Of a stretch of 64,000 nt of DNA, positions 2,199-25,620 are shown piece by piece. A program made the position numbers and the translations under genes. Source of the DNA: an uncultured candidate division Zixibacteria bacterium (GTDB lineage Bacteria; Zixibacteria; MSB-5A5; GN15; FEB-12); the NCBI GenBank assembly GCA_963806185.1, contig CAWDXE010000007.1, forward strand, positions 960,001 to 1,024,000, read 5' to 3'. Within the stretch, counting starts at the first letter, position 1. Every line of letters starts with the position of its first letter. Under the pieces are notes generated by a model. It did not search any database, had not been told where the DNA came from, and saw nothing but the letters and a program-made list of their open reading frames with translations.

Positions 2199-2717
2199 TC
2201 ACGGCATGAGCAGGATAGTTTCTTTGACCTGGGCGTCCATCGGTTGGTTGGCCGGGATAACCCCTTGCCCCCCTTTGATGAGCAAACCAAAGCCGAGAAT
2301 GAAGGAAATAATCTTCTTGTTGCCGCCCTTGGCCACGAGTGGACCGTCGGGTCCGGCCAGCGCAAGCTTACGGTTGTCGGGGGAGTTGTAGAAACCCTTC
2401 GCGTCGAGTTCACCGAGTTCGACCTCGATAGAGCCGGGCTTGCCGGGCTTGCCCGCGGGCTGGACCTTTTTCACCGTAGCCGTGCCGGTGGCTCCTGCCT
2501 TGACGACCGAAATGCCGCCGACAACGATAGAATCAACCAATTTGATCGGGACCTTGTCGCCGACCTTGGCACTGCCGGATGAGACCTTTTCTGTGAAGGC
2601 GACGCGGACCTTGGTGCCGGCGGGCACTTGCACCTGAGCGAAGCCAAGCGCAGTCAGCGCGAATAGCGCAACCAAGATCAGGATGAACATCTGTGCGGAG
2701 CGATAACGTATAGCCAT
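2199..2717 (-). CDS. Exported VirB10/TrbI-like beta-domain protein, last gene of the T6SS operon
   Basis: Signal peptide (ALTALGFAQ), then VPAGTKVRV...SS..AKVGD.V...G...GS pattern, a hydrophobic Gly-flanked segment IISFILGFGLLIKGG and a closing IPAN motif, as in TrbI-like proteins; GGAGG RBS. Confidence 0.6.
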   Translation of the reverse strand: MAIRYRSAQMFILILVALFALTALGFAQVQVPAGTKVRVAFTEKVSSGSAKVGDKVPIKLVDSIVVGGISVVKAGATGTATVKKVQPAGKPGKPGSIEVELGELDAKGFYNSPDNRKLALAGPDGPLVAKGGNKKIISFILGFGLLIKGGQGVIPANQPMDAQVKETILLMP

Positions 2718-2737: not shown

Positions 2738-4972
2738 CTATTGAATAACGGGCAGAATATCAATCAATTTCTTGTCGAATACGATGGTAACGGACTGCGA
2801 ACCTATGGTCAGCGTTCCTTCCATTTCGAAGAGAGCGAAATCACTATTCAGGATTCTTTTGACTTCGCTTCGCTCGCCCCAGTATTCGTCTTTGCCGTCG
2901 TGATTGTCAGGGTCGAGAGCAATGTGAATCTCATCCCCCGCCTTCCACTTGAGGACGTACGGCTTAGGGAACGTGGAAGTGACAGTCTGCCCCCTGACCC
3001 AGGCGTCGGGTCGCCCCGGTTCTTTCACCATGATGTGCAAGTGGTGACCGGCCGGAATGTTGGTGGCGCGGTAGGCATAGTCGCCGCGCTTTGAGAAAGC
3101 TTCAATTCCCTGGACGTAACGATCAATCTTGGAAATCGCGTTGGCATTATTGGCTGGGTCGACACTCAGCGTCTGACGGGCCTCTTTCAGTTCCCGGACA
3201 GCGCCTTTGACGCGGTACATGAGATCAGTGCTGGCGTTGATGCGGTCGAACAAGCCGCCGATTTCAGAGCCAAGCTGACCGGCTTCCTTGCGCGTCTGCT
3301 GGACGACGGTTTTGGCTTGTACAACCTGTCCCAGGCCGCTGAAAGCCTCGACCAGAGCCGGACCCATTTGCGCCTTGTCCTGAGCGACGCGGTCGCGCAT
3401 CTGCTTGAGCAGTTCGGGATCATCGGGGGCGAAGATCATGCTGCGGAATTTCTGCCACATCCAGACGGCGCGGTCGGCGTCGGTCTTAAGTGTGGAATTC
3501 TCCGGGGCCGCTGAAGCAATGGACTGGAAATTGTCGCCCACTTTGACAAATTCGGAAGCGTCGAGATCGTCGACAAACAACGAATCGCCGCCATCTACTT
3601 TCCGAGACGGCCAGAGGGCGGTGTCGCGAACGATGCCGGTGAATTTGTCGAGCGAGACCTTCAGTTCGCGTTCGAGATCATCCACAGAGGCGGAGGTGTA
3701 TTTGCGATAGATGTCCTGCGCCACGAGGGCGTAGCCGGGGAAGAACTGCTTAACAACGAACGATTTTGAGTACCGTTCGTAGGCATTCCGAATTTGATTG
3801 CGCGGCTCTTTCGGCATGGTAAAGTAATTCGCGCTCGGATAATGTTCCCGGGCCGTGTCCTCCACCCGGGTGGTGAAGGGCAATTGATACCAGAAATGGA
3901 ACATGAAGGGAATCGAGTAGACGATGATCCAGATGGCGGCGACGATCGAGGTCCATTTGGCGACCGTGCGAAACCGGCTGATCGATTTGTTGCGGGCGAT
4001 AGCCTGGAGAATCCAATAGAACGGGGCTTTCACGCCGATGGGCGTAAGTTTGTCCGGCGGACGGTACTTGGAATGACCGACGTCGGAGCCAATTTTGATC
4101 GGCGGCTGGCCGGTGGCCGAGACGAAGAAGATCTGGAAATCCAGGGTCCGTCCCAGCACGACGCGCAGGAGTTCGCGCGATTTTACGAGGATGTCGCGGA
4201 CTTCACCCGCCCAGGTCTGGTTGCGCGTGAGCGCGGGTTCGGTCATGACCTTGGCGACGAAGGTGTCAAAGTCTTCCGAGATGGCGTGCTCATTTTCCGG
4301 AGTAAGCAGAGTGATCTGCGCCTCGTCGCCAAAGCCGGCGAGCGTGTCGGATTTGGTGACCATCAGAGCGATCGGGATAGGAATTCGTCCCTGATGCGGG
4401 GCGATGCGCTCAAGGATGGTGACGAAGGTCTCCACGCGCGAGCGGCAGCCCAGTTCATCGAAGCGCAGTTTGGGATCGAAGACAAAGATCAGGGCGTCAC
4501 AATTGCAGAAGAAGTCGATAGCCTTTTCGCGCTGTTCCGGATTGCCGCCGAGCGACAGGATTTCGCCGGGGAAATCATAGCAGACGACCGGCACCTTGGC
4601 GCTGCCGTTGAGAATCGCCGTGAAGCGCAGGATCAGATCATGCATGGTGGCGTCCGGGAACGATTTATCACCCATGCGTTCAAAGCGAGTGCCGGGACCC
4701 TCGCTGACGGCCCGGCCGGTGATGGCGCGGGTGTTCTTGACCAGTTCGTTGGAAGTGGCCGTGTCGGAAACAGACAGTTGCAGTTCGCCGGCGAAGCGAG
4801 ACTCCTCGTACAGCACGGTGTAGAGAACGGTCTTACCGGTATAGCCGTGGCCGACGATGCCGATCTTGATGCCGGAGGGCCACTGCGTGGTAACCGCTGG
4901 TTTGCCGCCCTTCTTCCCTGAAGCGGCAAGCTTTGCTTTCTTTGAACCTAAGATCAGACTCGAAATATCCAC
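2738..4972 (-). CDS. P-loop GTPase domain + transmembrane helix + periplasmic region; TssM/IcmF-like membrane complex protein (putative)
   Basis: G1 GHGYTGKT, G3 YDFPGE, G4 TKSD(TLAGF), G5-like VSATG; TM WTSIVAAIWIIVYSIPFMFHFW; then a long helical region and a beta-rich C-terminus. Confidence 0.7.
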   Translation of the reverse strand: MDISSLILGSKKAKLAASGKKGGKPAVTTQWPSGIKIGIVGHGYTGKTVLYTVLYEESRFAGELQLSVSDTATSNELVKNTRAITGRAVSEGPGTRFERMGDKSFPDATMHDLILRFTAILNGSAKVPVVCYDFPGEILSLGGNPEQREKAIDFFCNCDALIFVFDPKLRFDELGCRSRVETFVTILERIAPHQGRIPIPIALMVTKSDTLAGFGDEAQITLLTPENEHAISEDFDTFVAKVMTEPALTRNQTWAGEVRDILVKSRELLRVVLGRTLDFQIFFVSATGQPPIKIGSDVGHSKYRPPDKLTPIGVKAPFYWILQAIARNKSISRFRTVAKWTSIVAAIWIIVYSIPFMFHFWYQLPFTTRVEDTAREHYPSANYFTMPKEPRNQIRNAYERYSKSFVVKQFFPGYALVAQDIYRKYTSASVDDLERELKVSLDKFTGIVRDTALWPSRKVDGGDSLFVDDLDASEFVKVGDNFQSIASAAPENSTLKTDADRAVWMWQKFRSMIFAPDDPELLKQMRDRVAQDKAQMGPALVEAFSGLGQVVQAKTVVQQTRKEAGQLGSEIGGLFDRINASTDLMYRVKGAVRELKEARQTLSVDPANNANAISKIDRYVQGIEAFSKRGDYAYRATNIPAGHHLHIMVKEPGRPDAWVRGQTVTSTFPKPYVLKWKAGDEIHIALDPDNHDGKDEYWGERSEVKRILNSDFALFEMEGTLTIGSQSVTIVFDKKLIDILPVIQ

Positions 4973-5006: not shown

Positions 5007-5957
5007 TCAGCGCGAGCCGGCATCGGTCTTAACCGCAGGTGAATTATTCGCGGGCGACGTTACGTACTCTTCCTGAAATTCCTGCAATTTGTGTTGCGTG
5101 TGTGACGACCAGAGTTTGGGCACCAGAATTGCCAGCGCTATGCTGACAATGATGATCCCGGCATACAACCCGTAAGCCGCTTTGCGCTGGGTCATGGTTA
5201 GCCAGAAATACCGATTACTCGAGAACGAACCCCGGAATTTGCGGCCCATTCCCGAAAATGAGGCTTTGACGCGGTCCCAGAATCCTATCTCAGTGACATA
5301 TCCCCATTCGCCAAAGTACAGGGCGGCCAGTTTGTCGATCTTGCTTTGCTTGTCGAAATACCCCAATTTCTGCAGAGTATACTCGAGAGAATTGCGGTCG
5401 CGCAGCAATTCGTTGCCGAATTCGAGCCGACGCCTGCCGAGTTCGAGTAACTGGTGTGGAAGCGACATCGCCTGCAAGGCCTCGGGCGACAGTCCGGCGT
5501 CAATTGGTGAGCCAAACTTGCTGGCGAAACGGGCGATTTCTCCCAGAAAGAAGACGTGCAGTCGGAAGTTGCCGTTCAGGGAGCCGGTCTGGAACAACTT
5601 CGGCACAAGGTGGTTGGCCATGTACGCAATGTCCTGCTTAATGGGACGGACACCACGACAATATGGGTACGCACGGTTATTCTGACCTTCGACTACAGCT
5701 ACGGACTCGAAATAGGAGACCAGAATCTGAACGGATAACTCACGCAGATCGGACGAATTCAGCGGTTGGGTCTTGATCTTTTCAAACAAGAGCGAGTCGA
5801 CCTCGACCGCCTTCTCCTTCTGGTGCCGCAGGGTGCCGAAAACGGCATAGATGCCATTATATGTTTGAAGAAAAGCCTCGGTCTCGAACTGAGCGTACTT
5901 GGTTTCGTACGTCTCGAGATAGGCGAAGAGGTCATTGATATAGTTCAGTGCGTCCAT
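5007..5957 (-). CDS. Helical cytoplasmic protein with C-terminal TM anchor (TssL/DotU-like topology)
   Basis: 316 aa with a single TM (AYGLYAGIIIVSIALAILVP) near the C-terminus, directly downstream of tssK. Sequence homology to TssL is not evident by eye. Confidence 0.55.
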   Translation of the reverse strand: MDALNYINDLFAYLETYETKYAQFETEAFLQTYNGIYAVFGTLRHQKEKAVEVDSLLFEKIKTQPLNSSDLRELSVQILVSYFESVAVVEGQNNRAYPYCRGVRPIKQDIAYMANHLVPKLFQTGSLNGNFRLHVFFLGEIARFASKFGSPIDAGLSPEALQAMSLPHQLLELGRRRLEFGNELLRDRNSLEYTLQKLGYFDKQSKIDKLAALYFGEWGYVTEIGFWDRVKASFSGMGRKFRGSFSSNRYFWLTMTQRKAAYGLYAGIIIVSIALAILVPKLWSSHTQHKLQEFQEEYVTSPANNSPAVKTDAGSR

Positions 5958-5981: not shown

Positions 5982-7419
5982 TCACACCGTGTAAACCGAG
6001 AGATCCGACTTGCGCATAGCCGACAATTTATCGGCAATAGCGGCGCCGGAAACAATCAACGTGAAGCGCCGAGCCGACGGGTGGCGATCCATACCGTCGG
6101 GCCTGAGCACAACTTTGCTGCCATACGAGACCGAGTCGATGACCACCGGGTCGACTTGCCCGAGGCCGGTGGACTTCGTTGATACCGAACTTGGCGCGCA
6201 TGCCGGACCACTCTCCAGCCGAGAGCAGTTCCTTGGCTACAAATACCAGTGCATCGGATACGGCCATCGGTTGGGCGAGATTGATCGATAAGTAGGTCAA
6301 TTCGCCGATCCGTTCCACTTTGTGCTCGCCGAACGCGGCCAGACGATAGGTGCGACCGTTGTAGGTGAGCGTTTCTTCGACAACGGCCCCGCGGTCGAGC
6401 TTGACCGGATCTTCCTGAGCCAGGAAACCGAGCACGCCGCGTAGTCGAGCCAGGATGTCGTCGATAGCTGCGAGCCCTAATGCTATTTGACGATGATCAT
6501 AGTCGGCCAACAGGAAAGTGTCGACGGCGGCCTCGAACGTGCGAACGTCGCCTTCCCCCTGCCGCGAGAAAAACTTCTCGTTGAGGTGGTCGCGCAATCT
6601 GGGCTGGAGCAAGAGGGCAGTGCGATAGAGACGGAAGAGCCTCTTGAGGAGAGCGACCATTTCGGCCGGATGCCCGGCGTTGCGCGTGGTGATCAAGCTG
6701 TCGGCGAACGCGGCGGTATGAGTGGCGCAGGCGAACAGCGCCTCGCGGACGGCCATTTGCAACTCGGAATCGGCAGGAGCCGCCGCAACCTTCTGATAGC
6801 CGGTGGCCGCTAATTTGAGAAGATTCTCTATGCGATTGCGGAATTCCTGAGCCTTGGCCATGAGTCGGGCGTCAGCCGACAAGGAGAGGCACGGAGGAAT
6901 ATAGCGATCTGAAATAGCTACCGAACCGCCGGCGACATTGATCTCGGCGACTTGCAGATAGTGTCCAACCGGAAGATCGGGTGGCTGACTCAAATGAAGT
7001 CGGTAATCAAAGGCGCGATACGGCGGCCTTGGAATATCTTCTCCGGGATCCGGCTGGCCCGCCTCACGTTTCGCCTGAGGCGACAGGCTGATATAGACCG
7101 GTACAGCGGCGTCGGACACTCGAGTATCGGCCTTCACCACGGGTTCGGTGGCGGGGTTGATTTCAACCACGCAGTAATCGGATGTAAGGGCCTGACAGCG
7201 CACTACCTGAACGGCCAGCGTAGAGCCGCTGAGGCTCAAGTGGAGGCTGAGCGAGGGCTCGCCGGAGGACGATTTGGCCGCCAGACCGTAATAGTCCCCT
7301 CCGCGCAGCGCATACCAGCGCACGAGGTTCTCAAAGTAAGCTTCCTGGTCGCGAAGGTGCTGCTCGCTCATGAGCATACCATCCTGCCAGTTTACAGAAA
7401 GAAGTCGAAATTCACTCAT
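5982..7419 (-). CDS. tssK: T6SS baseplate subunit TssK (apparent +1 frameshift near 6175)
   Basis: N-terminal VNWQDGMLMSEQHLRDQE, VVRCQALT and YIPPCLSL motifs. After ~6175 the alternative frame reads STGLGQVDPVVIDSVSYG...YTV* to a stop at 5982. Confidence 0.8.
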
Positions 7420-7479
7420 CGGAAACGTCACATGCGTTAAATGTTCAGTCCGCAATCTACGGACAGTTTATGGTCGGTG

Positions 7480-8433
7480 TCAAGACACCTTTGCCCGCAT
7501 CTGTCTATCGTTCTTTGTTTTGGCCAAACGGGCAGTATAGCCCAGACGATTGAGTCGATTTGGACCGGCGAGCCGACCGGCCGTAGGTAGACTGGCCACC
7601 CGCACGCGGCAGTTCATCCCCGCAGGCAGACAGACAGACAGCACCTCGTCCACCTTCCTCCGCAGGGGGTGGTTTGGCAGGAGGTCGGCAACCTGGTTCG
7701 GTGGGACATCGTGCACCGTCACCTCAAGAGAGGTATCGCACTCTGAGAAACTATTGCCCAGCACAGATTCGTGCCCCAGCGTATTCTGGTTCTGACCGAG
7801 TCTCCAGCGGAGTGCCTCAGGAGTCTCATGTCGGCTTTCAACGTTTTCCTGTATGGTAAAGCGAAAGCCAAAAAGGGCCTGGAGAAATCGTTCGACAAAG
7901 CGGGGGTTACCGCCCCAGTGGTAGAAGCCGGGCATAGACTCGGCCCAGACGCGCAGAGCATTGAGATCGGATTCCCCGACAGCGGATTGGTCAAACAACT
8001 GCAAGTAACGGGTCAAGTGGTGCTCGGACAGGATGCTGAAATTATAGGCCAGCGGCACGAGGACTGCCATCGCCTCAGCGTGCATAACCGCGGCGTCGAA
8101 GGGCGCCATGAAGCGGCGGGCATTATCTTCCCACTCGCCGGTACGATCGATATTGCCGGCCAGACCGTAGAAAAATTGGTACGGGAGAATATCAACGGCA
8201 CTGGCGAAGCCAACGTTTAGCGTAATGATCGAACTCGGGTAAAGCTCGGCACCCGGCGGTGGGTCCTGTTCCTGGATTTCACCACGGTAGTTGCCGGAGC
8301 TGCCCACAGCCAGGAATTGCATCTGGTGTGCCTCGACACCCAGTCGCTCCAGGATGATCAAGGCGACGGGTAGCGTGACAGGAGCACGTCGGTTTGAAAG
8401 ATTGGGCATGAGTTGCAGGCTCACCGGGCTCAT
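7480..8433 (-). CDS. tssG: T6SS baseplate subunit TssG with N-terminal PASTA-like domain
   Basis: ARRFMAPFD, WGGNPRFVERFLQALFG and LG.ESVLGNSF motifs; located after tssF with an ATGA overlap. Confidence 0.75.
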   Translation of the reverse strand: MSPVSLQLMPNLSNRRAPVTLPVALIILERLGVEAHQMQFLAVGSSGNYRGEIQEQDPPPGAELYPSSIITLNVGFASAVDILPYQFFYGLAGNIDRTGEWEDNARRFMAPFDAAVMHAEAMAVLVPLAYNFSILSEHHLTRYLQLFDQSAVGESDLNALRVWAESMPGFYHWGGNPRFVERFLQALFGFRFTIQENVESRHETPEALRWRLGQNQNTLGHESVLGNSFSECDTSLEVTVHDVPPNQVADLLPNHPLRRKVDEVLSVCLPAGMNCRVRVASLPTAGRLAGPNRLNRLGYTARLAKTKNDRQMRAKVS

Positions 8434-10079
8434 CGAGTTATCACTTCCACCTTGTATCGAGTATTGACGGCGGATCGAGCGGTGAGGAATCTCATCAGAC
8501 GATCGCGCGTCAGTTCAAGTTCCACTTCGGAGAGAAAATCATCCGCCTTGACATGGGCCTCCACCACAAGACACCGGCGCATACCGCGCTCGCCGCGTTC
8601 CACTCCCGGCCGGCAGTTGACTCTGGAGATTCGGGGATCAAAAGACGCGGTCCAGCGCTGAATGTCGGCGAAGGAGAGGGCGCGATCGCGCCCGCGCAGG
8701 CGAGCGGCAACTTCGGCCATCAATTGTTCTTCGTTGCGAGCCGGGACGGCTCCTTTAGACGGAAGCAGATTGGCCACGCTGGTGATACCGGGGTGAGGTG
8801 TGAACATCTCGTTTATTTTGCCGGGATCGATACCGTTGGCTTTGGGGCCAAGGGTCACACCGTAGAAGACGGTCAGTGATTCAGGGATGACATCGGCGGT
8901 CGGCGGAATCTCAATCCAGACGACGATGTGGTCTCTCCGTTCCTCCGTTGAGTACGTGTACATCTCCGGAAGAGACGAGTAGTGGCTACGCGTGCCGTAT
9001 TCGGTGCCTCGGGAGTCGACGACCCGGGAGATGCCGAGGACCTGTTCTGAGGGCTCAGGAAGTTCCATCTCAATGACGCGATTGGTGCCGGTGTGCTTGA
9101 ACAACGAGAGTTCATCCTTGTTGACGACGACGCAGCAATCAGTAAGCAATCGAGGCGTTTCGGCCAGGGCGCGGCGGTCGCCGCCAGCCGGCAGGTCAAT
9201 GCGCAGCCAGAAGAGCTTCTCGGCATCGTAGGGCATGGCAATACCTCTACGGGCGAGTTCTTCGCGAGTGTCTTCAGATATTTGGGATGGATCCCATTTT
9301 TCCACAAAGGATTCCGGGAGCCCGAGAAACTGTTCCTGCAGAATAGCGAACAGGTCATTGGTCGAGCGGAAGCCGCCCCACTGGCGGTCGATCAGCTCGT
9401 CCTTCAATTCTGCATTGCGAGAACCCGGACAGAAGCCGAATTCCTCGCGGAACCGCCCGGTGGCATCCGCGGGCAACCAGTTTCCCCAGATGATCTGTTT
9501 GGTGGCTTGAGGTTGGCCGTGAACAAACATCTGCGCTCCGGCCAACTGATGCGGGCGGCCATCGAAAGCCAGCCCAACCAGCAGGAAGCCCTGTCCCCGT
9601 CCGGGGATTTTGGCAGCCGTGGTCGAAGAAGCCAGCAGGTCGACTGCGACCTGATCGACGACGGCAAACATCTGGCGAACGGTCGTCTTGCAGAGACGTT
9701 CCGGCTTGAAAGCGGAGAAGTAGAAGGTATTCCCCCCGCGCCGCTTTTCCTGGTAGGAGAACTTGGTATTGACGTCGATCTCAACTACCGGGTCCAGGAG
9801 TTGACACTGCAGTACGGAGAAGGCGGGAACCGGCCAGCGGCTGATTTCGGGATACATCGACTGGATGAGCGCCTTGGTGGCGCGATCCCAGACCTCTTCA
9901 ACTCGTTTCTCGATTGTGGAAAGCTGATAGGCGTAGAGCTGCATCAGCATGCGCAGGACCGGGTCCAGTCGTTCGGCCGATTCCGGTGTTTCCGGATTCA
10001 TTCGCCGAAGCTGCCGGTGCATTTCGCGGAAGATTTCGTCGTGGGCTCTCGCCCGTCCTTCAATAGGTGTGCCCGCCAT
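8430..10079 (-). CDS. tssF: T6SS baseplate subunit TssF (T6SS-iii type)
   Basis: DPVLRMLMQLYAYQL...P...RWPVPAFSVLQ N-terminus and LRGRDRALSFADI C-terminal motif. Confidence 0.85.
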   Translation of the reverse strand: MAGTPIEGRARAHDEIFREMHRQLRRMNPETPESAERLDPVLRMLMQLYAYQLSTIEKRVEEVWDRATKALIQSMYPEISRWPVPAFSVLQCQLLDPVVEIDVNTKFSYQEKRRGGNTFYFSAFKPERLCKTTVRQMFAVVDQVAVDLLASSTTAAKIPGRGQGFLLVGLAFDGRPHQLAGAQMFVHGQPQATKQIIWGNWLPADATGRFREEFGFCPGSRNAELKDELIDRQWGGFRSTNDLFAILQEQFLGLPESFVEKWDPSQISEDTREELARRGIAMPYDAEKLFWLRIDLPAGGDRRALAETPRLLTDCCVVVNKDELSLFKHTGTNRVIEMELPEPSEQVLGISRVVDSRGTEYGTRSHYSSLPEMYTYSTEERRDHIVVWIEIPPTADVIPESLTVFYGVTLGPKANGIDPGKINEMFTPHPGITSVANLLPSKGAVPARNEEQLMAEVAARLRGRDRALSFADIQRWTASFDPRISRVNCRPGVERGERGMRRCLVVEAHVKADDFLSEVELELTRDRLMRFLTARSAVNTRYKVEVITR

Positions 10080-10082
10080 AGT

Positions 10083-10457
10083 TTAACCCAGATTGTAGAA
10101 GGCTTCAAACGGACGCAAGTGGCCGCCATCAGTGTATTCGCCGGTAACCTTGACGGCTACACCAATGCTGCGCGTCCCCACCGAAGTCGGTTGTTCGAAG
10201 GAGACAACGACGCTGGAAAGGCGGCGTTCGTACTTCTGAATAGCGTCACGGAGTCCGGAGCGAAGTTCAGATTTATTAGATGCCTGAATGTCGGCGTATT
10301 CGCGATCCCAGATGACCGAGCCGTATTCAGGATCGAACGGCAGTTGGCCCTTGCGAGTGGAGAGAATCAGACCAATCGAATACATGATTGACTCCTGCAG
10401 CGAAACGGACGGAAGATAGCCGTCGCGCAGGACGAGTGGAAGACCGAGGTAACGCAT
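10083..10457 (-). CDS. tssE: T6SS baseplate wedge TssE (gp25-like)
   Basis: LILSTRKGQLPFDPEYGSVIWD and AIQKYERRL gp25 motifs; TAATG overlap with vgrG. Confidence 0.9.
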   Translation of the reverse strand: MRYLGLPLVLRDGYLPSVSLQESIMYSIGLILSTRKGQLPFDPEYGSVIWDREYADIQASNKSELRSGLRDAIQKYERRLSSVVVSFEQPTSVGTRSIGVAVKVTGEYTDGGHLRPFEAFYNLG

Positions 10458-12319
10458 TAGTTAATCTTCACCGGCATACCCTGCACGGTGAGCGGGCCGT
10501 TGGCCTTGACCGTTCCAGTAGCGGCGCCCTCGACCGACAGAGTCGTGCCCTTCACGGTACACGAGGCGGTAGCCTCGAGATTGGCGTTGCCGGTGGCGGT
10601 TAGTTTCATGTCAGCCGTGGCCTTGGCCGTAAAATTGGCTTTTGCGGTTTCTTCGATATTGCCGCCGGCGGAGACTTTGACATCCTTGCTGGTTGCCTCA
10701 ATCGTGACCGACTCCTGAGCCTTTAGCGTGATGTTCTTCGCAACCAGGTTGATGTCTTCTTCACTCTCGATGGTAATTGAGATGCCGCCACTGACGGCAT
10801 CGAGAATTATGCAATTCTTGGCCTTGGTCTGGCGGATAATGACTTTTTCGTTGCCCGGCGAATCGACGAAGAGGATTTCGTTGCCGGAGACGGTTCGCAA
10901 GATCTTGATCACGTCAGAACCGCTCTCGGAGGCCGCCACCTCGCTTCCATCGACTATGCCCTTTGGCGGCAAATCCTTGCCGTTGTGCATGACGCCGAGT
11001 ATAACCGGCCGATCGGGGTCGCCGTTTTCGAAGCCGACGAGCACTTCATCGCCGACGTCCGGAAACGAAAACCAGCCGCGATCATTGCCGGCATCAGGCC
11101 GGGCCATGCGGCACCAGAAGAGCGACTCGTTCGCCATCCACGGGAGCGTGACCCGTATCCGGCCCATCTTCTCGGGATCGTTATTGTCAGCCACCAACCC
11201 GTACTGCAAATGCGTGGACCGATTCGTTGGGTCGTTGACCGGCGCAAAGGCAAGATCGAGAGGAACAGCCTGGAAACGGTTATGATACTGACCGCTATCG
11301 TTGATCACATGCGTTATTTCCGTGAGCCAGTACATGCCTCCGACGTTGCCGAGTTTGGCAATTTCGACACAACCGCCGAGGCCGATCGAGAGATCAATCG
11401 ATTGACCAATGGCCGTGACCAGTCGTCCCGCAGCACCGGAGCTCTGATTCTGCACAACTGCCTGCACATGGCTGGGAGAAGCTACTGAAGGGACATAAGA
11501 GAAATTGGCGGCGCTGTTGTAGATGGTTTTGGAGGCGTCGACGGAGGCCTTGATCAATCCGGACACCGCGATGGAAGGGAATTTCTGGGTATGCGACACC
11601 CATTCTTTCTTCTTGGGGTCCATCAGTTGAGCGTCGAAACCCAGCGATGTCGTGCCGAGATCGAGCATAAAGCTTCCCAGCGTTTCCTCAAAAGGCAGTC
11701 GCACCGACGTGGAAGACGAAGCCTTGCCGACGATGAATTCCTTGCCGGTGTAATAGGCATACAGACCATTACGAGCAGCCAGCCGGCAGATGTACTCATA
11801 ATCGGTTTCGTTGAACTGATGCAGTTGTTCGCTTTGTTCTGACGTGGAGGTTATCACCCCCTTGGTGATATCGTATTCGCCGAGGATAGTATCAATGGCC
11901 TGAGAATCCGTCTGATTGAACAGAAGACGGTTGTGCCTGACACTGTCGAGCAAGCAGGTGGGGCTTTGGGCCTCGATCAAGATCCAGTTGGCACCATCGA
12001 CGGAATTCTCTAAAGCGACACGAGTAATGAGACCGATGAAAGTCAGGCTTTTGTCACTTCCGGTGAGATTATCGAATGGCTTGATGGTAACCGTGATTTT
12101 TTCGCCGAGACCGTTGGTGTACGGCGTCGGGTCGATCGGGTCATTTGGGCCGAGTGCACCGACCTCCTTGACGCGCACGTTCAGGACGTGATGACCATCG
12201 ATGCGCTGGATCAGTTCCACGCCGGAGACGGATGCCTCGAGGGTCGTTTGACCGATGCGCACGTCGCAGAAGACGGAGATTTCGATCTTGGGCGTATACG
12301 GCGAATTGGATTGCTTCAT
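10457..12319 (-). CDS. vgrG: T6SS spike VgrG (gp27/gp5-OB, short beta-helical tip, no effector extension)
   Basis: QFNETDYEYICRLA; DNNDPEKMGRIRVTLPW; PDVGDEVLVGFENGDPDRPVILG. An in-frame TTG at 12322 is an alternative start. Confidence 0.93.
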   Translation of the reverse strand: MKQSNSPYTPKIEISVFCDVRIGQTTLEASVSGVELIQRIDGHHVLNVRVKEVGALGPNDPIDPTPYTNGLGEKITVTIKPFDNLTGSDKSLTFIGLITRVALENSVDGANWILIEAQSPTCLLDSVRHNRLLFNQTDSQAIDTILGEYDITKGVITSTSEQSEQLHQFNETDYEYICRLAARNGLYAYYTGKEFIVGKASSSTSVRLPFEETLGSFMLDLGTTSLGFDAQLMDPKKKEWVSHTQKFPSIAVSGLIKASVDASKTIYNSAANFSYVPSVASPSHVQAVVQNQSSGAAGRLVTAIGQSIDLSIGLGGCVEIAKLGNVGGMYWLTEITHVINDSGQYHNRFQAVPLDLAFAPVNDPTNRSTHLQYGLVADNNDPEKMGRIRVTLPWMANESLFWCRMARPDAGNDRGWFSFPDVGDEVLVGFENGDPDRPVILGVMHNGKDLPPKGIVDGSEVAASESGSDVIKILRTVSGNEILFVDSPGNEKVIIRQTKAKNCIILDAVSGGISITIESEEDINLVAKNITLKAQESVTIEATSKDVKVSAGGNIEETAKANFTAKATADMKLTATGNANLEATASCTVKGTTLSVEGAATGTVKANGPLTVQGMPVKIN

Positions 12320-12327
12320 CAATAGTC

Positions 12328-12371: not shown

Positions 12372-12776
12372 TTATTCCTGCCACCGGTTATCGATGCTGG
12401 CGTCAGCAATGCTGAGCGTCTGGCACGAAATCTGAAACTCCTCGTAGACCTGCTGGTCGGGACTCTCTTTGACGTGCGGAATAGTCTCCTTGTACGACGT
12501 AATGAAACCGTCGGTCCAGGTCAACTCTTTCATGACCGAGTCGTCGGGGTTGCGGAAGATGACCTTGCCGCCCTTCCAGTTCGGCTTTGCCGAGTTCATG
12601 GCCCAGGAAGCCATGGTGGTGTCAGCCGTCGATTCGCGGATGACGGTAATCACGCCGGCGTGGGCGCGGTCCGAGGGGCGACCGGTTTCGTCTTTCGCGG
12701 TATAAAGTACGTACGTGACCGAGTAGACGTTCGGATACGCGACTCCCTCAACTTCCAAAGTAGGCCGTCTTGCCAT
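12372..12776 (-). CDS. hcp: T6SS tube protein Hcp/TssD (Bacteroidota T6SS-iii type)
   Basis: 134 aa; DETGRPSDRAHAGVITVIRES, GKVIF...MKELTWTDGFITSYKE and FQISCQTL motifs; AAGGAG RBS. Confidence 0.88.
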   Translation of the reverse strand: MARRPTLEVEGVAYPNVYSVTYVLYTAKDETGRPSDRAHAGVITVIRESTADTTMASWAMNSAKPNWKGGKVIFRNPDDSVMKELTWTDGFITSYKETIPHVKESPDQQVYEEFQISCQTLSIADASIDNRWQE

Positions 12777-12853: not shown

Positions 12854-14281
12854 TCAGCTCTTGTCTTTGACGCCGGTCTTGCCGTCCTCGTTCCACGCCG
12901 CGAATTCGATAAAGAAGGTGCGGGCGGGATATTTCGGATTGAGCATGACCTTGATGTCGATTTCCTGACGCTTGCGCATTTCCTGGTCGGCGAAGATTTC
13001 GATTTTGTAATCTTCCAGGATCGAATCGGGGCCGGATATCGCCTTCATGAATTTCTCGATGTCGGTGCGCAGGGTGACGAGGAACTTCTCGTCGATTACG
13101 GTAAACGTCTGCTTATTGAGATAATTGCGGAGCGTCTTGTAGACGTAATCATAAGTCCGCCGGATCGAATAGACATTGAATGTCTCCTTGGTAAACAGGG
13201 TAGCGGCGCCCATCGCAACGGCAGAACCCTCGAAGTTTACCATGGGGTTGACGCCCTTTTCGTTGATCTTGCCGGCGTCGACCTGATTTACCTTGAAACG
13301 AAGGTACTTGGCGTCGCTGATCTTGCCGTGCTTGTAACCGGCCATCGGCTGCTGCATACCGGCCGTGGTGTCGCCCTGATACATCTTACCGGCGACGGAG
13401 GCTGACGGCGGCACCCACATGTCGTCATCTTCGTACTGATTAGCCGTGCGGGCAAGCACGTAGTTGGCGAAGATGGCCACATATTGCTTGTAATTGTCGA
13501 CGCCGGGCAGGTTGGCATAGTTCGGATCGTCAAGCATCTCCATGACCTCTTCGAACTTCTCGAAGTTTGGCAGATCGGTGAGCACCTGACACTTGTTGGC
13601 GAAGCCCAACTGCCGGGCGAAGTTGTCGACATTCTCGACACTGCCAAGATAGCCGGGAACAACGGCCATACCGAAGGCCTCCTTGATGCTGAATTCCCGA
13701 TAGAGGTCGGCGACGGCCTTGCAGAGTTGTTCGAACTTCTCTTTGTCGTTCGGGTCGGTCAGTTCTTCGGCCGACACATTGGCGAACCAGACGTTCACTT
13801 TTTCGTCAGGTTCCTGCTGGGCGTTGGCGAAGAACTTGTCGACGGCCCGGTAGGCGAGTTCGAGCTCGCGAGCAGTGCGATGGACGGTCTTCATGTTTTT
13901 GGAAAGGTTGGTCTCGAGTTTGGCCGCGGCCTCGGCGAGGCCCTTGCGCACGTCGTCGGGCGACTTGCTCGTGGACAGATGCTCCATCCAGAGTTTCATA
14001 CGATGGGCGAGAGTCTTCCGGCGGGCGGCAAATTCGGGTTTGTTGAGAAACTCCTTACGTTGAAACTCCTTTTTGGGGTCGAGCCATTCGACGCCGCTGA
14101 CCAGATCGTTGTCGGGAGTTTTGAACGACGGCATCAGAGCAGCCAGCTTGCTGTAGTCGCCGAACGAATCGGACAACAACGCCGCAAACTGGGCATCTGA
14201 AAGTCGGGCTTCAGTTTTCGCCGGAGCCTCGGCAAACGCCGGCTGTTCACCAGCCGATTCTTTTTTGACTTCATCAGACAT
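12854..14281 (-). CDS. tssC: T6SS contractile sheath large subunit TssC (T6SS-iii/DUF5458 type)
   Basis: RELELAYRAVDKFFAN, VVPGYLGS, VPPSASVAGKMY, QPMAGYKHG and PKYPARTF motifs. Confidence 0.9.
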   Translation of the reverse strand: MSDEVKKESAGEQPAFAEAPAKTEARLSDAQFAALLSDSFGDYSKLAALMPSFKTPDNDLVSGVEWLDPKKEFQRKEFLNKPEFAARRKTLAHRMKLWMEHLSTSKSPDDVRKGLAEAAAKLETNLSKNMKTVHRTARELELAYRAVDKFFANAQQEPDEKVNVWFANVSAEELTDPNDKEKFEQLCKAVADLYREFSIKEAFGMAVVPGYLGSVENVDNFARQLGFANKCQVLTDLPNFEKFEEVMEMLDDPNYANLPGVDNYKQYVAIFANYVLARTANQYEDDDMWVPPSASVAGKMYQGDTTAGMQQPMAGYKHGKISDAKYLRFKVNQVDAGKINEKGVNPMVNFEGSAVAMGAATLFTKETFNVYSIRRTYDYVYKTLRNYLNKQTFTVIDEKFLVTLRTDIEKFMKAISGPDSILEDYKIEIFADQEMRKRQEIDIKVMLNPKYPARTFFIEFAAWNEDGKTGVKDKS

Positions 14282-14296: not shown

Positions 14297-14737
14297 TTAT
14301 TCGCTCAACAGATCCACATAGTGCTGCATGATCTTCAGCAGCGCTTCTTTTTTTGCCTTATCCTCAAGCGTCTTGAGCAGCGCCTTGTTCTTTTTGAGCT
14401 GCTGTTCGAGATCATTGAGGATTTCCTTACCGTAGTACGTGTCACGCAGGTAGTCGTTCTTCTCAATCAGCTCTTTGGAGGTGAAATCCTTCATCGATTT
14501 GACATCGAAGTGGGCGTTGACCTGCTGGCCGTCGGTCGTTTCCAGTTGAGCTTCGAAGTTCGGCTGGAATTTTTCGAAGACCTCTTTCATGTTGGAGCAA
14601 CGGACCGGCGTGACGTCCGGGTTGTCTTCGGTATTCAACCGTGCCGCATAGAGCGTCTTGTTTGACTGCAACAACTCGACCGGAATCGAATCATCCTTTT
14701 TCACTTTCTCGGTGGCCCCGAGAACAAATTTGGCCAT
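14297..14737 (-). CDS. tssB: T6SS contractile sheath small subunit TssB (T6SS-iii type)
   Basis: NKTLYAARL, EVFEKFQPN, MKDF and QLKKNKAL motifs; directly before tssC; GGAGG RBS. Confidence 0.85.
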   Translation of the reverse strand: MAKFVLGATEKVKKDDSIPVELLQSNKTLYAARLNTEDNPDVTPVRCSNMKEVFEKFQPNFEAQLETTDGQQVNAHFDVKSMKDFTSKELIEKNDYLRDTYYGKEILNDLEQQLKKNKALLKTLEDKAKKEALLKIMQHYVDLLSE

Positions 14738-14757: not shown

Positions 14758-15876
14758 CTAGGCGTCTGCCCGTTTTTCTGTCGTAAAAATGTAGGCGTCA
14801 TTCTGCACATCGACCAGGACCCGGTCTCCTGACGCGATGGCGCCGGTGATGATGTCAACAGAAAGACGGTTTATTATATCGCGTTCAATTGTGCGTTGCA
14901 TGGGGCGCGCCCCAAGGTCGGGGACGTAGCCGTCGTGAGAGAGCTTGGTTTTCGCAGCCGGCGTCAGGACGGCCGTGATGTTCTGCTCTTTCAACATGTT
15001 GTTTACGGTCTCGAATTCCAGGACGGCGATCTTTTCGATCTGCTGCTGCGTGAAGGAGTGATACACGATGATATCGTTGAGCCGGTTGAGGAATTCGGGG
15101 CGGAACTTGCCGAAGAGGAAGCTGCGGACTTCTTCCATGTCGACCTCGCGTCCTTCGCGATCGGCCTCGAGAATGCGATCGGCGGCGTAGTTTGATGTCA
15201 GTACGACCATGCAGTTGGAGAAGTTGACCGTTCGCCCCTGACCGTCGGTAAGACGGCCATCGTCAAGCAACTGCAAAAGGACGTTGAACACGTCGGGGTG
15301 CGCCTTCTCGACTTCGTCGAAGAGGATAACCGAAAACGGTTTCCGTTTGACGGCTTCGGTCAGAAGGCCACCCGCCTCATAACCGACATAGCCGGGCGGC
15401 GCGCCGATCAACTTGGCGACGGAGTGGGGTTCCATGAACTCGGACATATCCATGCGGACCATGGCATTCTTATCGTCGAAGAGAAACTCGGCGAGCAGTT
15501 TCGGGAGGTAGGTCTTCCCCGTTCCGGTAGGGCCGAGGAAGAGAAAAGAGCCGATCGGGCGATTGGCCAGCTTAAGACCGGCGCGCGCTTTCCGCACGGC
15601 GTTGCAGATCGCCTTGATGGCGTTTTCCTGCCCGATGATCTTCTTCTGCAGGAACCCCTCCATGTTGACCAGACGGTCCTTTTCGGCGGTCATCATCTTG
15701 GAGAGCGGAATGCCTGTCCTCCGCGCCACGACCGCGGCAATATCTGACGCGTCGATGGTCTGATCGAGCTTGCCGACGACTGACTGCAACAACTCAAAGC
15801 GAGCCCGCTTGGCGTCAAAGGACGCCTTCAGCTGTTCGACGCGAACCGGTGTGGGCTTGATCTTCTTTTCGCTCAT
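14758..15876 (-). CDS. clpV: ClpV/ClpB-family AAA+ ATPase, C-terminal half (second nucleotide-binding domain)
   Basis: RPIGSFLFLGPTGTGKT, GAPPGYVGYE, LFDEVEKAHPDV and GARPMQR motifs; own ATG with GGAG 7 nt upstream, overlapping the previous stop (ATGA). Confidence 0.9.
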   Translation of the reverse strand: MSEKKIKPTPVRVEQLKASFDAKRARFELLQSVVGKLDQTIDASDIAAVVARRTGIPLSKMMTAEKDRLVNMEGFLQKKIIGQENAIKAICNAVRKARAGLKLANRPIGSFLFLGPTGTGKTYLPKLLAEFLFDDKNAMVRMDMSEFMEPHSVAKLIGAPPGYVGYEAGGLLTEAVKRKPFSVILFDEVEKAHPDVFNVLLQLLDDGRLTDGQGRTVNFSNCMVVLTSNYAADRILEADREGREVDMEEVRSFLFGKFRPEFLNRLNDIIVYHSFTQQQIEKIAVLEFETVNNMLKEQNITAVLTPAAKTKLSHDGYVPDLGARPMQRTIERDIINRLSVDIITGAIASGDRVLVDVQNDAYIFTTEKRADA

Positions 15877-17331
15877 ACGCCGGCTCCTGCTGCATCGATA
15901 CGATGCCCCCAGAGTTCATCGAGACGATTGACCGTGGCCTCGAATGTCTCGACGGCGGTTTTCAGTTTGCCGTACTCTTCGGATTCGGGATCAGGCTCTT
16001 TGCCGCCGAACGCAGCCAATTGCTTCTCGATCTCCTTCGCCTGCGCCTGCAGGGCGACGATCTTGTCCTTTCCGAATTCCTGCTTCACGGCATATTCCGA
16101 CGCGGCTTCGTCGATGATATCCAGCGCGATATCAGGGAGATTCCGTTCGGCCAGATAGCGGGTGGCGAACTTCACGGAGCCAACGATGGCGTCCTCAGTG
16201 TAGGTAATCTTGTGGTGCTCCTGGTACTTGGGAACGACGCCGCGGACAATGCGGATGGCTTCATCAGGAGAGGGTGGCTCAACCTTGACGCGTTCAAAGC
16301 GACGGTCCAGGGCCTTGTCTTTTTCAAGATGCTTGCTGTACTCTTCTTCCGTGGTCGCACCGACGAGGCGTATCTGACCGCGAGCCAGCGCCGGTTTAAG
16401 GAGATTGGCGGCATCCATGCCTCCGCCGGTTGAGCCGCCGCCACAAATCGTGTGGATTTCGTCGATGAAGAGCACAATGCGCCCGCCAGACTTGACGACG
16501 TCGCCCACGAGGGCCTTGAACCTCTCCTCAAATTCGCCTTTGTACTTGGCACCAGCGACGAGAGAACCCATGTCGACGCCCATGACTTTGACGCCGTGCA
16601 GGGAGCGCGGGACTTTTTCCTCAACTACGGCCTGAGCGAAGCCCTCGACGATGGCGGTTTTCCCTACACCGGCACCGCCGACGAGGACGGGACTGTTTTT
16701 GCGACGACGAAGCAGAATTTGAATGACTTGCTGGATTTCTTTGTCACGTCCGACGCAGATGTCAAATTGGCCGGCGGCCGCCTGATTGGTGAGATCTTCG
16801 CAATAACGGAGCGTCCCCGAGACCTCTTTGGAACCGGAATCAGAGTCACCGGATGACGGAGCGGTCGAACCGGCAGTCGCGATTTGCGCAACGGCCTTGG
16901 CCTCGGCGATCGCCTGGTAGATGTCTTCAGTGGTAACGCCGAGCCGATCACGCAGCACGCCGGGGAGCTTTGAGCGAACGTCGAAGGCGGCGATGAAAAT
17001 ATGCTCGGGCTCCACCAGCGCGTCGTATAGTTTGGCCTTCTCCTCAAGAGCCTGCGCCAAGGCATTCTGGGCCGCAGGGGACATTGTCAGGTTCTCTCTG
17101 ACGGAACTCTTCGACGGCTGTTCCTTCAGGAATTCTTCGACGATCGACTCAAGGTGGGCCCGGCTCTTCCCCAATTGCGAGAGGATGGACTCCAACCCTG
17201 ACCCTTCGTGGCGAATGGCAGCGACGAGGAGATGTGGCAAGTCAATTTCGGGGTGCCGGAAGGCGACGGCCACTTCCCTGGGCGGTGCGTATAACAGATC
17301 GAGAATCGGACGAATAATTGGCTATATCCAT
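15873..17331 (-). CDS. clpV: ClpV/ClpB-family AAA+ ATPase, N-terminal half (Clp-N repeats + first nucleotide-binding domain); apparent +1 frameshift near 17277
   Basis: VGRDKEI, GGAGVGKTAIVEG, LFIDEIH and DKALDRRF motifs. ATG 17331 gives MDIANYSSDSRSVIRTAQ, which joins EVAVAFRHPEID if one G of the GGG run is removed. Confidence 0.88.
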
Positions 17332-17525: not shown

Positions 17526-18215
17526 TCATCTGGCGTACAGGTCAAACCAGGAAAGATTCAACTCCTTTGCCCAGGACATAACGGCCCGACCAGGCGAAGC
17601 CTGCACTTTGAGAGTGACAAAACCGATCTGCCGGCCATCGCACCACCAATGCAGGTGGTCGATGTGATCCGAGTGATCGGGGGCGGTCGGGGGTTGCGTC
17701 TGAATCCCCAAAGTCAAACCGTCGTGGGTTTCCGTCTGCTGCGGTTCAAAACGAAGAGATTCCGTCAACACGGCCGCAGCTACTTTTTTGACGAATTCCA
17801 GGGTTGGTTGGTCGGGTGGCTTGGGCCAGTCCAGGGTGATGCTGATGAGACAGAAAGTCTGACCGATGTCGATCTGCTTTCCCGCCCATTGGTACCGGAC
17901 TCGCACGATATCGCACCGGTTTTGACGATCTCCGGCAAATGCAATATAGCGGGCATCGCCGGGTGGCTGGGCGGAATCGACCATGATTTGGTCAATCCAG
18001 GAAGTGGCAATCTCGACGGCTTCTTTCTGGCCAGGTGCGCGACCGGGTGTGGTACCAGCGGTCAGCGCATCCTCCTCCGTTTTGGTCAAGGAGACAAGTT
18101 GGGCACTTACGTTGTCAAATGGCATAGCCGATTCCTTCCCTTTCTCGGTTGGATTTCCGCAAACGGCCAGGACAAAAGCAATGGCAGTCAGGGTGGCAGC
18201 CTGGCACGGCTTCAT
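17526..18215 (-). CDS. Putative periplasmic immunity protein
   Basis: N-terminal signal MKPCQAATLTAIAFVLAVC (atypical lipobox); ATGA overlap with the upstream LysM effector. Confidence 0.55.
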   Translation of the reverse strand: MKPCQAATLTAIAFVLAVCGNPTEKGKESAMPFDNVSAQLVSLTKTEEDALTAGTTPGRAPGQKEAVEIATSWIDQIMVDSAQPPGDARYIAFAGDRQNRCDIVRVRYQWAGKQIDIGQTFCLISITLDWPKPPDQPTLEFVKKVAAAVLTESLRFEPQQTETHDGLTLGIQTQPPTAPDHSDHIDHLHWWCDGRQIGFVTLKVQASPGRAVMSWAKELNLSWFDLYAR

Positions 18216-19549
18216 AGCGGCGGCATATGCGACCACGCCTCGGGATCCCATATTGCCTCCGGACAGGGGCCTGGATTCTTGCAGAAGCCGGCGGCGTTAC
18301 TCACCCAGACCGTGGCCACAACCATGGCCTCCATGGCCGCGGCCGGGGAATCATAACAGCTTTCGCCGATGCAGTAGTATTTCTCGCCGTATTTCACCGT
18401 TCCTTCAAAATTGTTCCACCCCTGGTAGGCCGTCTTGCGTTTCGAGTGATCGCGAAAGATAAGCTTCTCGCTCGCTCCGTGCGGAGGATCAGGATTTGGG
18501 TGGGTAGCCGCCACACCGCGCGACTCGTTGGCTTTGCCTGAGCGGTCGAATTTACCGCTTCCCTTCAGCATGCCGGGATACAGATGCCCGAGCACAAATT
18601 TGTCCGGCAGGCCGAGCATTTGACAACTCTTTTGGAAGAGGTCGGCCAGGGCGTTGCATTCGGCACGTACTCCGCCGAAGATCTTCCAGACAGGATTGGG
18701 ATACGGTGCGCCCAGAAAGTAGTGGCCGATCTCCTGGCCGGAAATTACTTTGAAGACGGCATCAACATACCCCTGTTCATCGCGGGGAGACTCGGGATTA
18801 TCCGTGAAATATTTATCCACCCATGTTGTGAGCGCATACAGCCGCTTGACGGTCGGGGCGCTGCCGTACGGCTTGTCGTAGGTCAGCATGATATGGTGAG
18901 GGCCGGTGGGTCCGAGGTCAAACTTACGCTTGCCGATGTCGACCTCCCAGGACAACTGGACCTTCCAAGTCGCGATTTCATCCCACAATGGGGCTTCAGC
19001 TTCGAGGGTGGCCTCACCCCGGCCGTTTTCAATCTTAAATTCCTGGTCAACGAAAGACACTTTGAGCTGGTCACCCTTGACTCGGACGATGGCCTGCTCG
19101 GTGACGTGGTCGGCAGGCAGTGCTTCCACTTCGACAGTGATCTTGAGTTTCTGATGCTTGGTGTGTGAGATAGGGGAGTTGAGACGAGGGGTCCACTCCG
19201 GTTTGGGGAAGCGGTTTCCCGTATCGGTCCAGTCACGTTTGTTGTCGAGGAGCAGGTCGTGATCGGAGACGAACTTCAGGCCCTTAATGGAGAGGGATTC
19301 TATCTTGCGTGGGGCACGCCGGAAGAAACGAAAGATGCCGCCCGTGTGACTTCGGGCGCGATTGGGAGTGGCAGGAATCCAGACACGCTCGCCAACCGAG
19401 AGTTCGTTATGGTCAGGGTGTTTCTTTCGAAAGCTCTCGTTCCGGTCGTGGTAGTAGATCACTTTCCAGTCGGCCAGACCGTAGGTTCGGGCCAGGCGTG
19501 AGAGCGACTCTCCACGCTCGACAACATGATAGAATCCACCGTTGCTCAT
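18212..19549 (-). CDS. LysM-domain putative T6SS effector with transglutaminase/papain-like Cys domain
   Basis: LysM: YHVVERGESLSRLARTYGLADWKVIY...LSVGERVWIP. C-terminal AECNALADLFQKSCQMLG motif; no signal peptide. Confidence 0.65.
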   Translation of the reverse strand: MSNGGFYHVVERGESLSRLARTYGLADWKVIYYHDRNESFRKKHPDHNELSVGERVWIPATPNRARSHTGGIFRFFRRAPRKIESLSIKGLKFVSDHDLLLDNKRDWTDTGNRFPKPEWTPRLNSPISHTKHQKLKITVEVEALPADHVTEQAIVRVKGDQLKVSFVDQEFKIENGRGEATLEAEAPLWDEIATWKVQLSWEVDIGKRKFDLGPTGPHHIMLTYDKPYGSAPTVKRLYALTTWVDKYFTDNPESPRDEQGYVDAVFKVISGQEIGHYFLGAPYPNPVWKIFGGVRAECNALADLFQKSCQMLGLPDKFVLGHLYPGMLKGSGKFDRSGKANESRGVAATHPNPDPPHGASEKLIFRDHSKRKTAYQGWNNFEGTVKYGEKYYCIGESCYDSPAAAMEAMVVATVWVSNAAGFCKNPGPCPEAIWDPEAWSHMPPL

Positions 19550-20448: not shown

Positions 20449-20459
20449 GACTGCCGCAA

Positions 20460-20891: not shown

Positions 20892-20893
20892 GA

Positions 20894-21673: not shown

Positions 21674-21674
21674 T

Positions 21675-24008: not shown

Positions 24009-24030
24009 AATTGCGTATGCGACGGTCGCC

Positions 24031-24468: not shown

Positions 24469-24471
24469 GAA

Positions 24472-25620
24472 TCACTCCGGCGCGGATTCCGGTTCGGGAC
24501 GCGGAAAGTTGGGAAAACGCAGCCAGTGGATGGCGGCCGGTACCGGATCGAGGGTCGCTTTCCCGGACGAATCAAGTTTCCCGTCGCGCACTTCCCCGTT
24601 GGAGAGGAAAACCACGTAGGGTTCGTCTTTCAGGGCGTTGCCGTCTTCATCCTTGGCTTCGATTACTATCTTGTCAGTAAACGTAATCAGGGCCGAGCGC
24701 GCCTCAAGGGCTCCGATGCGGACCTTGAAGAAGTACTGCGGCAAGCTGTACGCCGAGCGGCCGTCGGAGAGGGTCGGAATCGAAGCGAAGGAAGGGTATT
24801 CGAACGCCCATTCTCTTTCGATGCCGTCGCTCTTGACGGTAACATCGGGAATGACGGTGACCATCTGATCCGGCTGTTTGATATCGCGCAGCCAGACTTC
24901 GAGCTGAGCAGGTGTGCCGTCCTCGACACCGACCGTGCTCACGGTCACCTTCACCTTGTCGCCGGCTTTGGCCTTGTCGGTCGACCACCGGGCTTGCGTG
25001 ATCGCCTTAAAAGCAACATCGTAATCACCTTCATCGGCCGCATTACGCTGGATGACGCCGGTGGACAGCTCACCGGACGACTTGCCGTCGGGATGAGTAA
25101 TTTCATGGACGACGCCCGTTATCGGGAAACCGCCCTTGTCGACTATTTGAACGTCGAGGAAGTGACCCTCAACGTCGTCTTCTTCGCTATCGCTGGAGTC
25201 TGACTCGCTTTCGGAACTTGCGTCGGTGTGACCACCTTCTTCGGCGGCGGCAGTTTCGCGATCGCCTTCTTTAGCACCGCCGCTTCCCCCTCCGCCGCCG
25301 GCTCCGCCCCCTCCCCCGCCGCTATCGCCAATCAACACGGTAGGGCATCCGCCGACGATTGAATCCGGTGGGCCGGCGCAAGTGGCCATGTCGCCCATTC
25401 TGGCAGCAGGCATTCCGCCGATAAGCACGGTTGCACTACCTTTCATAATGGGACCGCCGACGTGTGGTGGCGGCGGGACGCCGGGGTTGAGCATCGGACA
25501 GACGTGCATGTCACCCATGCGGGCGGCCGGCTGACCACCGATGAGAACCATCGGAAAGCCGACGACGATTGCTCCGCCGTGAGCGGTACTGTCACCAAGT
25601 CGAGCTGCTGGTTGGCCCAT
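24472..25620 (-). CDS. PAAR-repeat spike-tip protein with C-terminal extension
   Basis: Three PAAR motifs (PAARLGD, PAARMGD twice) with His/Cys ligands, a Gly/acidic linker, then transthyretin-like domains. Confidence 0.95.
   Translation of the reverse strand: MGQPAARLGDSTAHGGAIVVGFPMVLIGGQPAARMGDMHVCPMLNPGVPPPPHVGGPIMKGSATVLIGGMPAARMGDMATCAGPPDSIVGGCPTVLIGDSGGGGGGAGGGGGSGGAKEGDRETAAAEEGGHTDASSESESDSSDSEEDDVEGHFLDVQIVDKGGFPITGVVHEITHPDGKSSGELSTGVIQRNAADEGDYDVAFKAITQARWSTDKAKAGDKVKVTVSTVGVEDGTPAQLEVWLRDIKQPDQMVTVIPDVTVKSDGIEREWAFEYPSFASIPTLSDGRSAYSLPQYFFKVRIGALEARSALITFTDKIVIEAKDEDGNALKDEPYVVFLSNGEVRDGKLDSSGKATLDPVPAAIHWLRFPNFPRPEPESAPE

Follow-up and report, generated by a model that had tools for sequence, protein, structure and literature searches.

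About half of Zixibacteria species encode, within their gene cluster for a type VI secretion system (T6SS), a predicted membrane-anchored GTPase, and neither of the known T6SS membrane anchors was found there. The gene for this GTPase is placed close to the end of such an operon in the window (the whole stretch of 64,000 nucleotides analyzed), and its product likely replaces TssM because of its position, its exclusivity with TssM, and its architecture. We consider it probable that the protein does the job of TssM as the core of a three-protein envelope anchor, together with the neighboring proteins X316 and Z172. Such an anchor is likely a third kind of T6SS anchor, distantly related to TssM.

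The T6SS operon and its conservation

The operon is a complete T6SS operon of the Bacteroidota type. Its order is a split clpV followed by tssB-C-hcp-vgrG-E-F-G-K-X316-GTPase-Z172; all genes are encoded on the minus strand and are single-copy in the source genome, which is 82% complete. The ClpV/TssH-like ATPase (14758..17273, Pfam and NCBIfam) is encoded by two ORFs at 15873-17273 and 14758-15876, and the sheath is encoded by tssB (14297..14737; PF05591) and the Bacteroidota-type tssC (12854..14281; PF17541, E 2e-73). These are followed by the Bacteroidota-type tube gene hcp/tssD (12372..12776; PF17642, E 5e-21), the spike gene vgrG (10457..12322; PF04717, PF05954, TIGR01646), tssE (10083..10457; PF04965, TIGR03357), tssF (8430..10079; TIGR02243, E 9e-8, and PF05947, below cut-off at E 0.0013), tssG (7480..8433; PF06996), and the baseplate adaptor gene tssK (6028..7455; PF05936, TIGR03353). 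Upstream, still within this strand block, lies the gene of a PAAR spike-tip protein (24472..25620, minus; PF05488). The plasmid proteins that TssC and TssK match best are from Bacteroidota, and the tssK profile is nearer to Bacteroidota than to the tssK of T6SS-i (99.7% vs 98.5%). The clpV split recurs in most related loci, the gene being fused in L035-L037 and L068. The frame of tssK changes near position 6176 (two frames in tblastn), with the last 65 residues of its homologues in the other frame; the shift may be genuine or may stem from an error in the assembly.

The block from PAAR to clpV (17526-25620, minus) contains DcrB/PsbP-like, LysM-like (by eye), and unannotated genes and varies among relatives; probably, these are effector and immunity genes. 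Two of its ORFs, 19546-20448 and 24472-25620, have one domain in common. Upstream, the minus-strand region 25727-29243 encodes a barrel protein of the outer membrane (PF13557) as well as a membrane-bound Ser/Thr kinase that carries a PEGA domain. Kinases border the operon in many relatives too, which may be compared with the phospho-regulation of T6SS-i.

Three genes follow tssK. X316 (5007..5957, minus) is conserved and helical and has a single membrane segment at its C-terminal end (261-279), the GTPase (2738..4972, minus) is a single ORF of 744 aa with a GTG start, and Z172 (2199..2717, minus) is a beta protein that is exported, has no lipobox, and conserves a hydrophobic stretch at 136-154. 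The GTPase gene is the second after tssK, and the earlier note was right by gene order in placing it in the TssM position. X316 appears TssL-like in position and topology; it had no Pfam, NCBIfam, or PDB-sequence match and no usable atlas match. Its identification as TssL stayed at chance in the profile test (0.3%, with 9 of 25 shuffles as good), and identification of X316 or the GTPase as TssN gained no support from a profile test. For Z172, a candidate outer-membrane partner of the GTPase, identification as TssJ gained no support, with no profile match; a lipobox-like motif occurs in 1 of 25 Z172 proteins. The atlas matches of Z172 were unnamed clusters, a TrbI cluster with a low score of 0.79 serving only as a lead, and Z172 may have a VirB10-like look.

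Gene order was compared in 120 loci, 40 of them hand-picked across families and 80 the best of 113 from a genome scan; 103 were left after duplicate removal, and only those whose flanks are long enough enter each count. The gene directly upstream of the GTPase gene is X316 in 92/98 loci, tssK is two genes upstream in 88/94, and Z172 is located downstream, within 3.6 kb, in 78/84. A GAP1-N2-like gene is directly downstream in 19/91 loci and exceeds the Pfam cut-off in L049, L071, and L072. The GTPase gene sits away from tssK-X316 in 6/98 loci, and all five displaced-GTPase genomes tested retain X316 about 8 kb from tssC. The order tssK-X316-GTPase-GAP1-Z172 stays intact in L071-L077 (from Krumholzibacteriota-labelled and unlabelled bacteria), where the genes for tube and sheath are inverted or lie elsewhere. 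The related loci examined showed no further envelope gene that is conserved in the operon, and no conserved stretch was found in a first scan of the loci of the 16 most distant proteins. In two Krumholzibacteriota-labelled loci (L071, 5277-8321; L072, 12492-15518), GAP1-N2 forms the start of a longer protein, about 1000 aa in size, that also has a membrane segment and a long tail.

Among 285 genomes of the phylum, the GTPase and the PF17541 sheath were each found in 145, and the two occur together in 143 of the 147 genomes with either gene (lists compared by eye); as kin are not independent, these co-occurrence counts are descriptions, not statistics. The four discordant genomes, with the GTPase or the sheath alone, are 58-77% complete. 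The earlier note had named a lack of structural similarity to TssM and homologues mostly unlinked to T6SS genes as what would speak against its reading; instead, both the tssK linkage and this co-occurrence tie them to T6SS, and the protein shows a remote likeness to TssM at its two ends. The named homologues are mostly from Zixibacteria. True TssM is present in 23/285 genomes, one of which (G179) has the GTPase as well, and in 6/6 TssM genomes inspected it belongs to a separate ordinary tssK-L-M-tagF cluster. This canonical T6SS-i is almost exclusive of the GTPase-type system, and its TssM is ordinary, at about 1130 aa. TssN was over the cut-off in 0/285 genomes, with two weak matches, in a search that had no positive control, as 14 control genomes matched none. 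In the source genome no match was found for PF14331 (TssM), DotU, TssJ, or GAP1-N2, nor was TssN found there, and the 25 ORFs of the window gave no Pfam match to TssO, TssP, TssQ, or TssR.

Motifs, architecture, and ancestry of the GTPase

The four motifs quoted in the earlier note were all found in the 744-aa ORF: GHGYTGKT at residues 41-48, DFPGE at 133-137, PIALMVTKSDTLAGF at 200-214, and VSATG at 284-288. They are conserved in an alignment of 78 non-redundant relatives, which comprises 59 proteins from the loci after duplicate removal, 18 distant ones from databases, and the query. Residues G41, K47, G136, K207, and D209 are present in 78/78, position 133 is D in 75 and E in 3, and S285 and G288 are kept in 77/78; T109, the Thr at the G2 position, was absent from the earlier motif list and is T in 74 and S in 4. 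Since they are near-invariant across these relatives, the G motifs are not due to chance. Two of them were read too broadly: S-x-x-G is conserved in the proposed G5, but its Ala occurs in just 16/78 relatives, and DxxG is conserved in DFPGE, but the following Glu occurs in just 23/78. The strict conservation of the motifs is notable because Walker A is missing in 1/9 plasmid TssM proteins. The TKxD motif suggests specificity for GTP. According to the accessible text of PMC3346141, Agrobacterium TssM, for which use of ATP was shown and hydrolysis of GTP noted, has the same TKxD motif, and IcmF is modelled as Ras-like in the available part of a preprint (bioRxiv 10.1101/2023.03.22.533729); given these precedents, to regard TssM as a GTPase is nothing new.

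An AlphaFold2 model (48 sequences, pLDDT 86, pTM 0.53) and the hydrophobicity of the protein agree with the earlier description of one TM, a helical region, and a beta-rich tail. In its domain map, a basic N-terminal helix is followed by a Ras-like G domain (residues 33-332), a membrane helix (about 336-362, within a long helix 315-377), helical bundles (365-627), and a C2-like beta domain (630-740). The sole hydrophobic segment is 336-354, and region 320-340 contains five K/R and no D/E; the protein is predicted to be a single-pass inner-membrane GTPase. The best fold match of the G domain model is a Rag-like GTPase (Z 16.1, rmsd 2.9, 177 aligned). The exported part, about 380 aa, is poorly conserved and is shorter in one family with proteins of about 630 aa. 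When the query and three profiles were compared by sequence with solved structures, no match was significant.

Profile-profile comparison related the G domain to the cytoplasmic domain of TssM (91.6-91.8%, E 7-8e-7, about 130 columns through the G4-G5 insert) and DO-GTPases to TssM (96.7-97.4%). Between the G domain and DO-GTPases it gave 100%, a score that is biased because those DO-GTPases were picked by the profile of the GTPase family itself. The Pfam family DO-GTPase2 (PF19993) gave 23.1 bits for the query against a cut-off of 27 and matched 12/12 relatives, 3 of them above the cut-off; IcmF_N (PF14331) matched 8/12 relatives (E 0.003-0.095, all under the cut-off) and gave no match for the 744-aa query itself. 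A profile search of 1.84 billion proteins led from the GTPase family to relatives of about 800 aa and to DO-GTPases, with TssM not among the 61 of 150 matches scanned. In an unrooted tree of 66 G domains, 14 TssM domains form their own clade (support 0.996), and 23 members of the GTPase family are interleaved with DO-GTPases. The distance between G4 and G5 is 76 in the GTPase, 105-111 in TssM, and 35-50 in most measurable DO-GTPases.

The tail folded alone reached pLDDT 94, and its best beta matches were C2 domains, weakly so in Foldseek (E 0.001-0.1); against C2 domains it gave Z 7.2, rmsd 3.2, and 93 aligned residues, and unrelated models also reach Z 7. TssM's last domain is called C2-like by Pfam, and the profile of the TssM C-terminus matched the tail weakly (40.9%, E 3e-4, 0/25 block shuffles as good), the score being 2.7% with 9 sequences in the TssM alignment, 19% with 15, and 41% with 29. 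PF06744 had no match in 51 GTPase family members among the first 25 of 58 families listed. The helical periplasmic part had no similarity to TssM (profile 0.14%), and PF06761, the central helical domain, had no Pfam or profile match in the GTPase, where this region is helical in the model. TssM was not among the 50 matches listed in either fold search of the tail, nor of the whole model, which does not exclude TssM likeness; for the cytoplasmic part of TssM, a structure at high resolution did not exist according to the accessible text of a 2019 paper (PMC6517824). The GAP1-N2-like protein weakly matched the TagF profile (69.6%, E 4e-5, 0/25 shuffles as good), the score having risen from 0.2% to 9% to 70%, where the final value was obtained after each of the two had been cut back to its 200 N-terminal residues. 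The G4-G5 insert, the tail, and the GAP1-N2/TagF match are three features pointing toward TssM.

The tail is also common to the GTPase family and DO-GTPases of about 730 aa (93%), two of ten of which, when looked up, were planctomycete-named. These proteins sit beside GAP1-N2, with FGE-domain genes in one locus scanned; across L192-L271, GAP1-N2, FGE-domain, TPR, and kinase-WD40 genes adjoin DO-GTPase2 proteins of this length. Of 80 loci around them, 28 were at least 9 kb long, and our own profiles detected a T6SS gene in none of these 28; therefore the design of a G domain, TM, helices, and tail with GAP1 does not by itself imply secretion. Other G-TM-helix proteins, of 700-1480 aa, are P0118, P0121, P0122, and P0127, the P0118 cluster being named Thiotrichaceae/Parabeggiatoa. 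The simplest reading of these weak matches may be one old G-TM-helix-C2 design with a partner of the TagF/GAP1 type, found in T6SS-i, in the Zixibacteria T6SS, and in non-secretion systems.

In this scheme, DO-GTPases appear closer to the GTPase, TssM appears to be a remoter branch of the same design, and both appear to be branches of one larger family; the two alternatives in the earlier note are therefore both partly right. The "short, remote TssM relative" holds as remote likeness in the G domain (92%) and, weakly, in the tail (41%) and fails on the TssM Pfam cut-off, length, and N-terminal helices. The "double-GTPase-type" alternative is in part right in that the G domain is closest to DO-GTPases; the query stays under the PF19993 cut-off, and the Walker B Glu, present in the query, occurs in 23/78 of the family. 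The profile check suggested in that note likewise related the domain to both families, with no PF14331 match for the query and a PF19993 score below the cut-off.

The proposed anchor and its rivals

The GTPase resembles TssM/IcmF as follows: its gene follows tssK and a tail-anchored partner and, in some lineages, is next to a TagF-like gene; it has Walker A, DxxG, and the TKxD-xx-GF region, a long G4-G5 insert, and, in the model, a membrane helix leading to helical bundles and a C2-like domain. However, the Pfam cut-off, its length, and the N-terminal helices all place it outside the TssM family. It falls below all TssM Pfam cut-offs (PF14331, PF06761, PF21070, PF06744), its length is 744 aa vs 1106-1190 aa in TssM, a hydrophobic segment before residue 120 is present in 0/78 GTPases vs 15/15 TssM, and its G1-G3 region is longer. 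The N-terminal hairpin of TssM is not universal, since Legionella IcmF is described in the available preprint text as having a single membrane helix at 317-338 (bioRxiv 10.1101/2023.03.22.533729). In contrast to T6SS-i, the operon has no TssJ or recognizable TssL and has a tube and sheath of the Bacteroidota type. With T6SS-iii of Bacteroidota (TssNQOPR) it shares this sheath (PF17541), this tube (PF17642), the nearest TssK, and anchor genes after tssG-tssK, but not TssN; in the accessible text of the T6SS-iii paper (Bongiovanni et al. 2024, PMC10781749), GTPase, ATPase, and NTPase are all absent. The DO-GTPase2/GAP1-N2 systems (PF19993, PF20013), in the accessible text of Kaur et al. 2020 (PMC7159879), have the nearest G domains, C-terminal membrane helices with beta-sandwich domains beyond, and the GAP1-N2 partner found downstream of some of our GTPases. 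They differ in the Walker B Glu, whereas our GTPase is single copy and embedded in a T6SS, with no GAP1 found in the source genome and neither an FNIII component nor variable effectors of DO-GTPase systems beside it within the window. The main text of that paper has no occurrence of T6SS, IcmF, or TssM and one of "type VI".

On the cytoplasmic side of the proposed anchor, the TssK baseplate would be docked by the G domain and X316. Several GTPase copies may form a ring whose exported helices guide the Hcp tube, while at the outer membrane the C2-like tips would meet Z172. The anchor would toggle between states through the binding and hydrolysis of GTP, and the GAP1-N2 protein, in lineages with it, may regulate this switch as TagF does in T6SS-i. 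The exported part is short (about 380 aa vs roughly 690 in TssM), and therefore its spanning of the periplasm is not assured. Counting against the anchor are this short and variable exported part, the middle region without TssM similarity, and the tssK frameshift.

That the GTPase is a shrunken, fast-evolving true TssM, with X316 as TssL in an inherited tssK-L-M-tagF block and a secondary likeness to DO-GTPases, seems to us rather unlikely. The gene order does mirror tssK-tssL-tssM-tagF, both ends of the protein match TssM and GAP1 matches TagF, the G4-G5 distance is between those of most DO-GTPases and TssM, and Legionella IcmF is described with a single membrane helix. However, the TssM G domains form a separate clade while the GTPase family is interleaved with DO-GTPases, DO-GTPase2 matches all 12 relatives where IcmF_N matches 8 weakly, tssK is nearer to Bacteroidota than to T6SS-i, and the real TssM of Zixibacteria is ordinary. 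It is unlikely, in our estimate, that a DO-GTPase/GAP1 conflict system supplied the protein as an accessory GTP switch or sensor that regulates the T6SS, with the channel made of other unrecognized proteins or with anchoring at the inner membrane alone. Its closest relatives are indeed DO-GTPases with GAP1-N2 outside T6SS loci, GAP1-N2 is the next gene in 19/91 loci (over the Pfam cut-off in three), the exported part is poorly conserved, and the GTPase gene can sit away from tssK. The 143/147 co-occurrence nevertheless fits a core part, the operon revealed no other conserved envelope gene, and X316 is retained near tssC in 5/5 displaced-GTPase genomes tested.

A GBP/atlastin-like remodeller that bends or fuses the membrane at the firing site is very improbable. 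GBP1, Sey1, and atlastin were within the top five of the whole-model Foldseek search, and the basic N-terminal helix would suit this role, but the helices past the membrane helix are on the opposite side from the G domain, and the fold search at domain level favors small GTPases. This dynamin-like reading was rejected, as those Foldseek matches had rmsd 23-40 and TM-scores <0.2.

Returning to the anchor of X316, GTPase, and Z172, we tentatively extend it to a new T6SS subtype of Zixibacteria, Krumholzibacteriota, and their neighbors. This subtype would have a third membrane complex in which Z172 is a non-lipoprotein outer-membrane pore and the GTPase a true GTP switch; TssM-TagF and DO-GTPase-GAP1 might then descend from one ancestral GTPase-regulator pair, with this module as an intermediate.

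Novelty and significance

No published description of a GTPase-anchored T6SS was found in a search that left subscription papers mostly uncovered, and the supplementary locus lists of PMC7159879 could include these loci. For the gain of envelope anchors by contractile injectors, the accessible text of PMC10781749 gives three scenarios, and it finds the two known complexes not to be homologous. With its near-invariant G motifs, the GTPase offers a clean case for asking the purpose of the nucleotide site of TssM, and X316, GTPase, and Z172 are three small genes whose products might be produced together and their structure solved as that of a minimal anchor. The GAP1-N2/TagF match would be the first functional lead on an uncharacterized conflict-system domain. 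A Bacteroidota-type tail with a TssM-like GTPase anchor would be a third combination, and half of a phylum has it.
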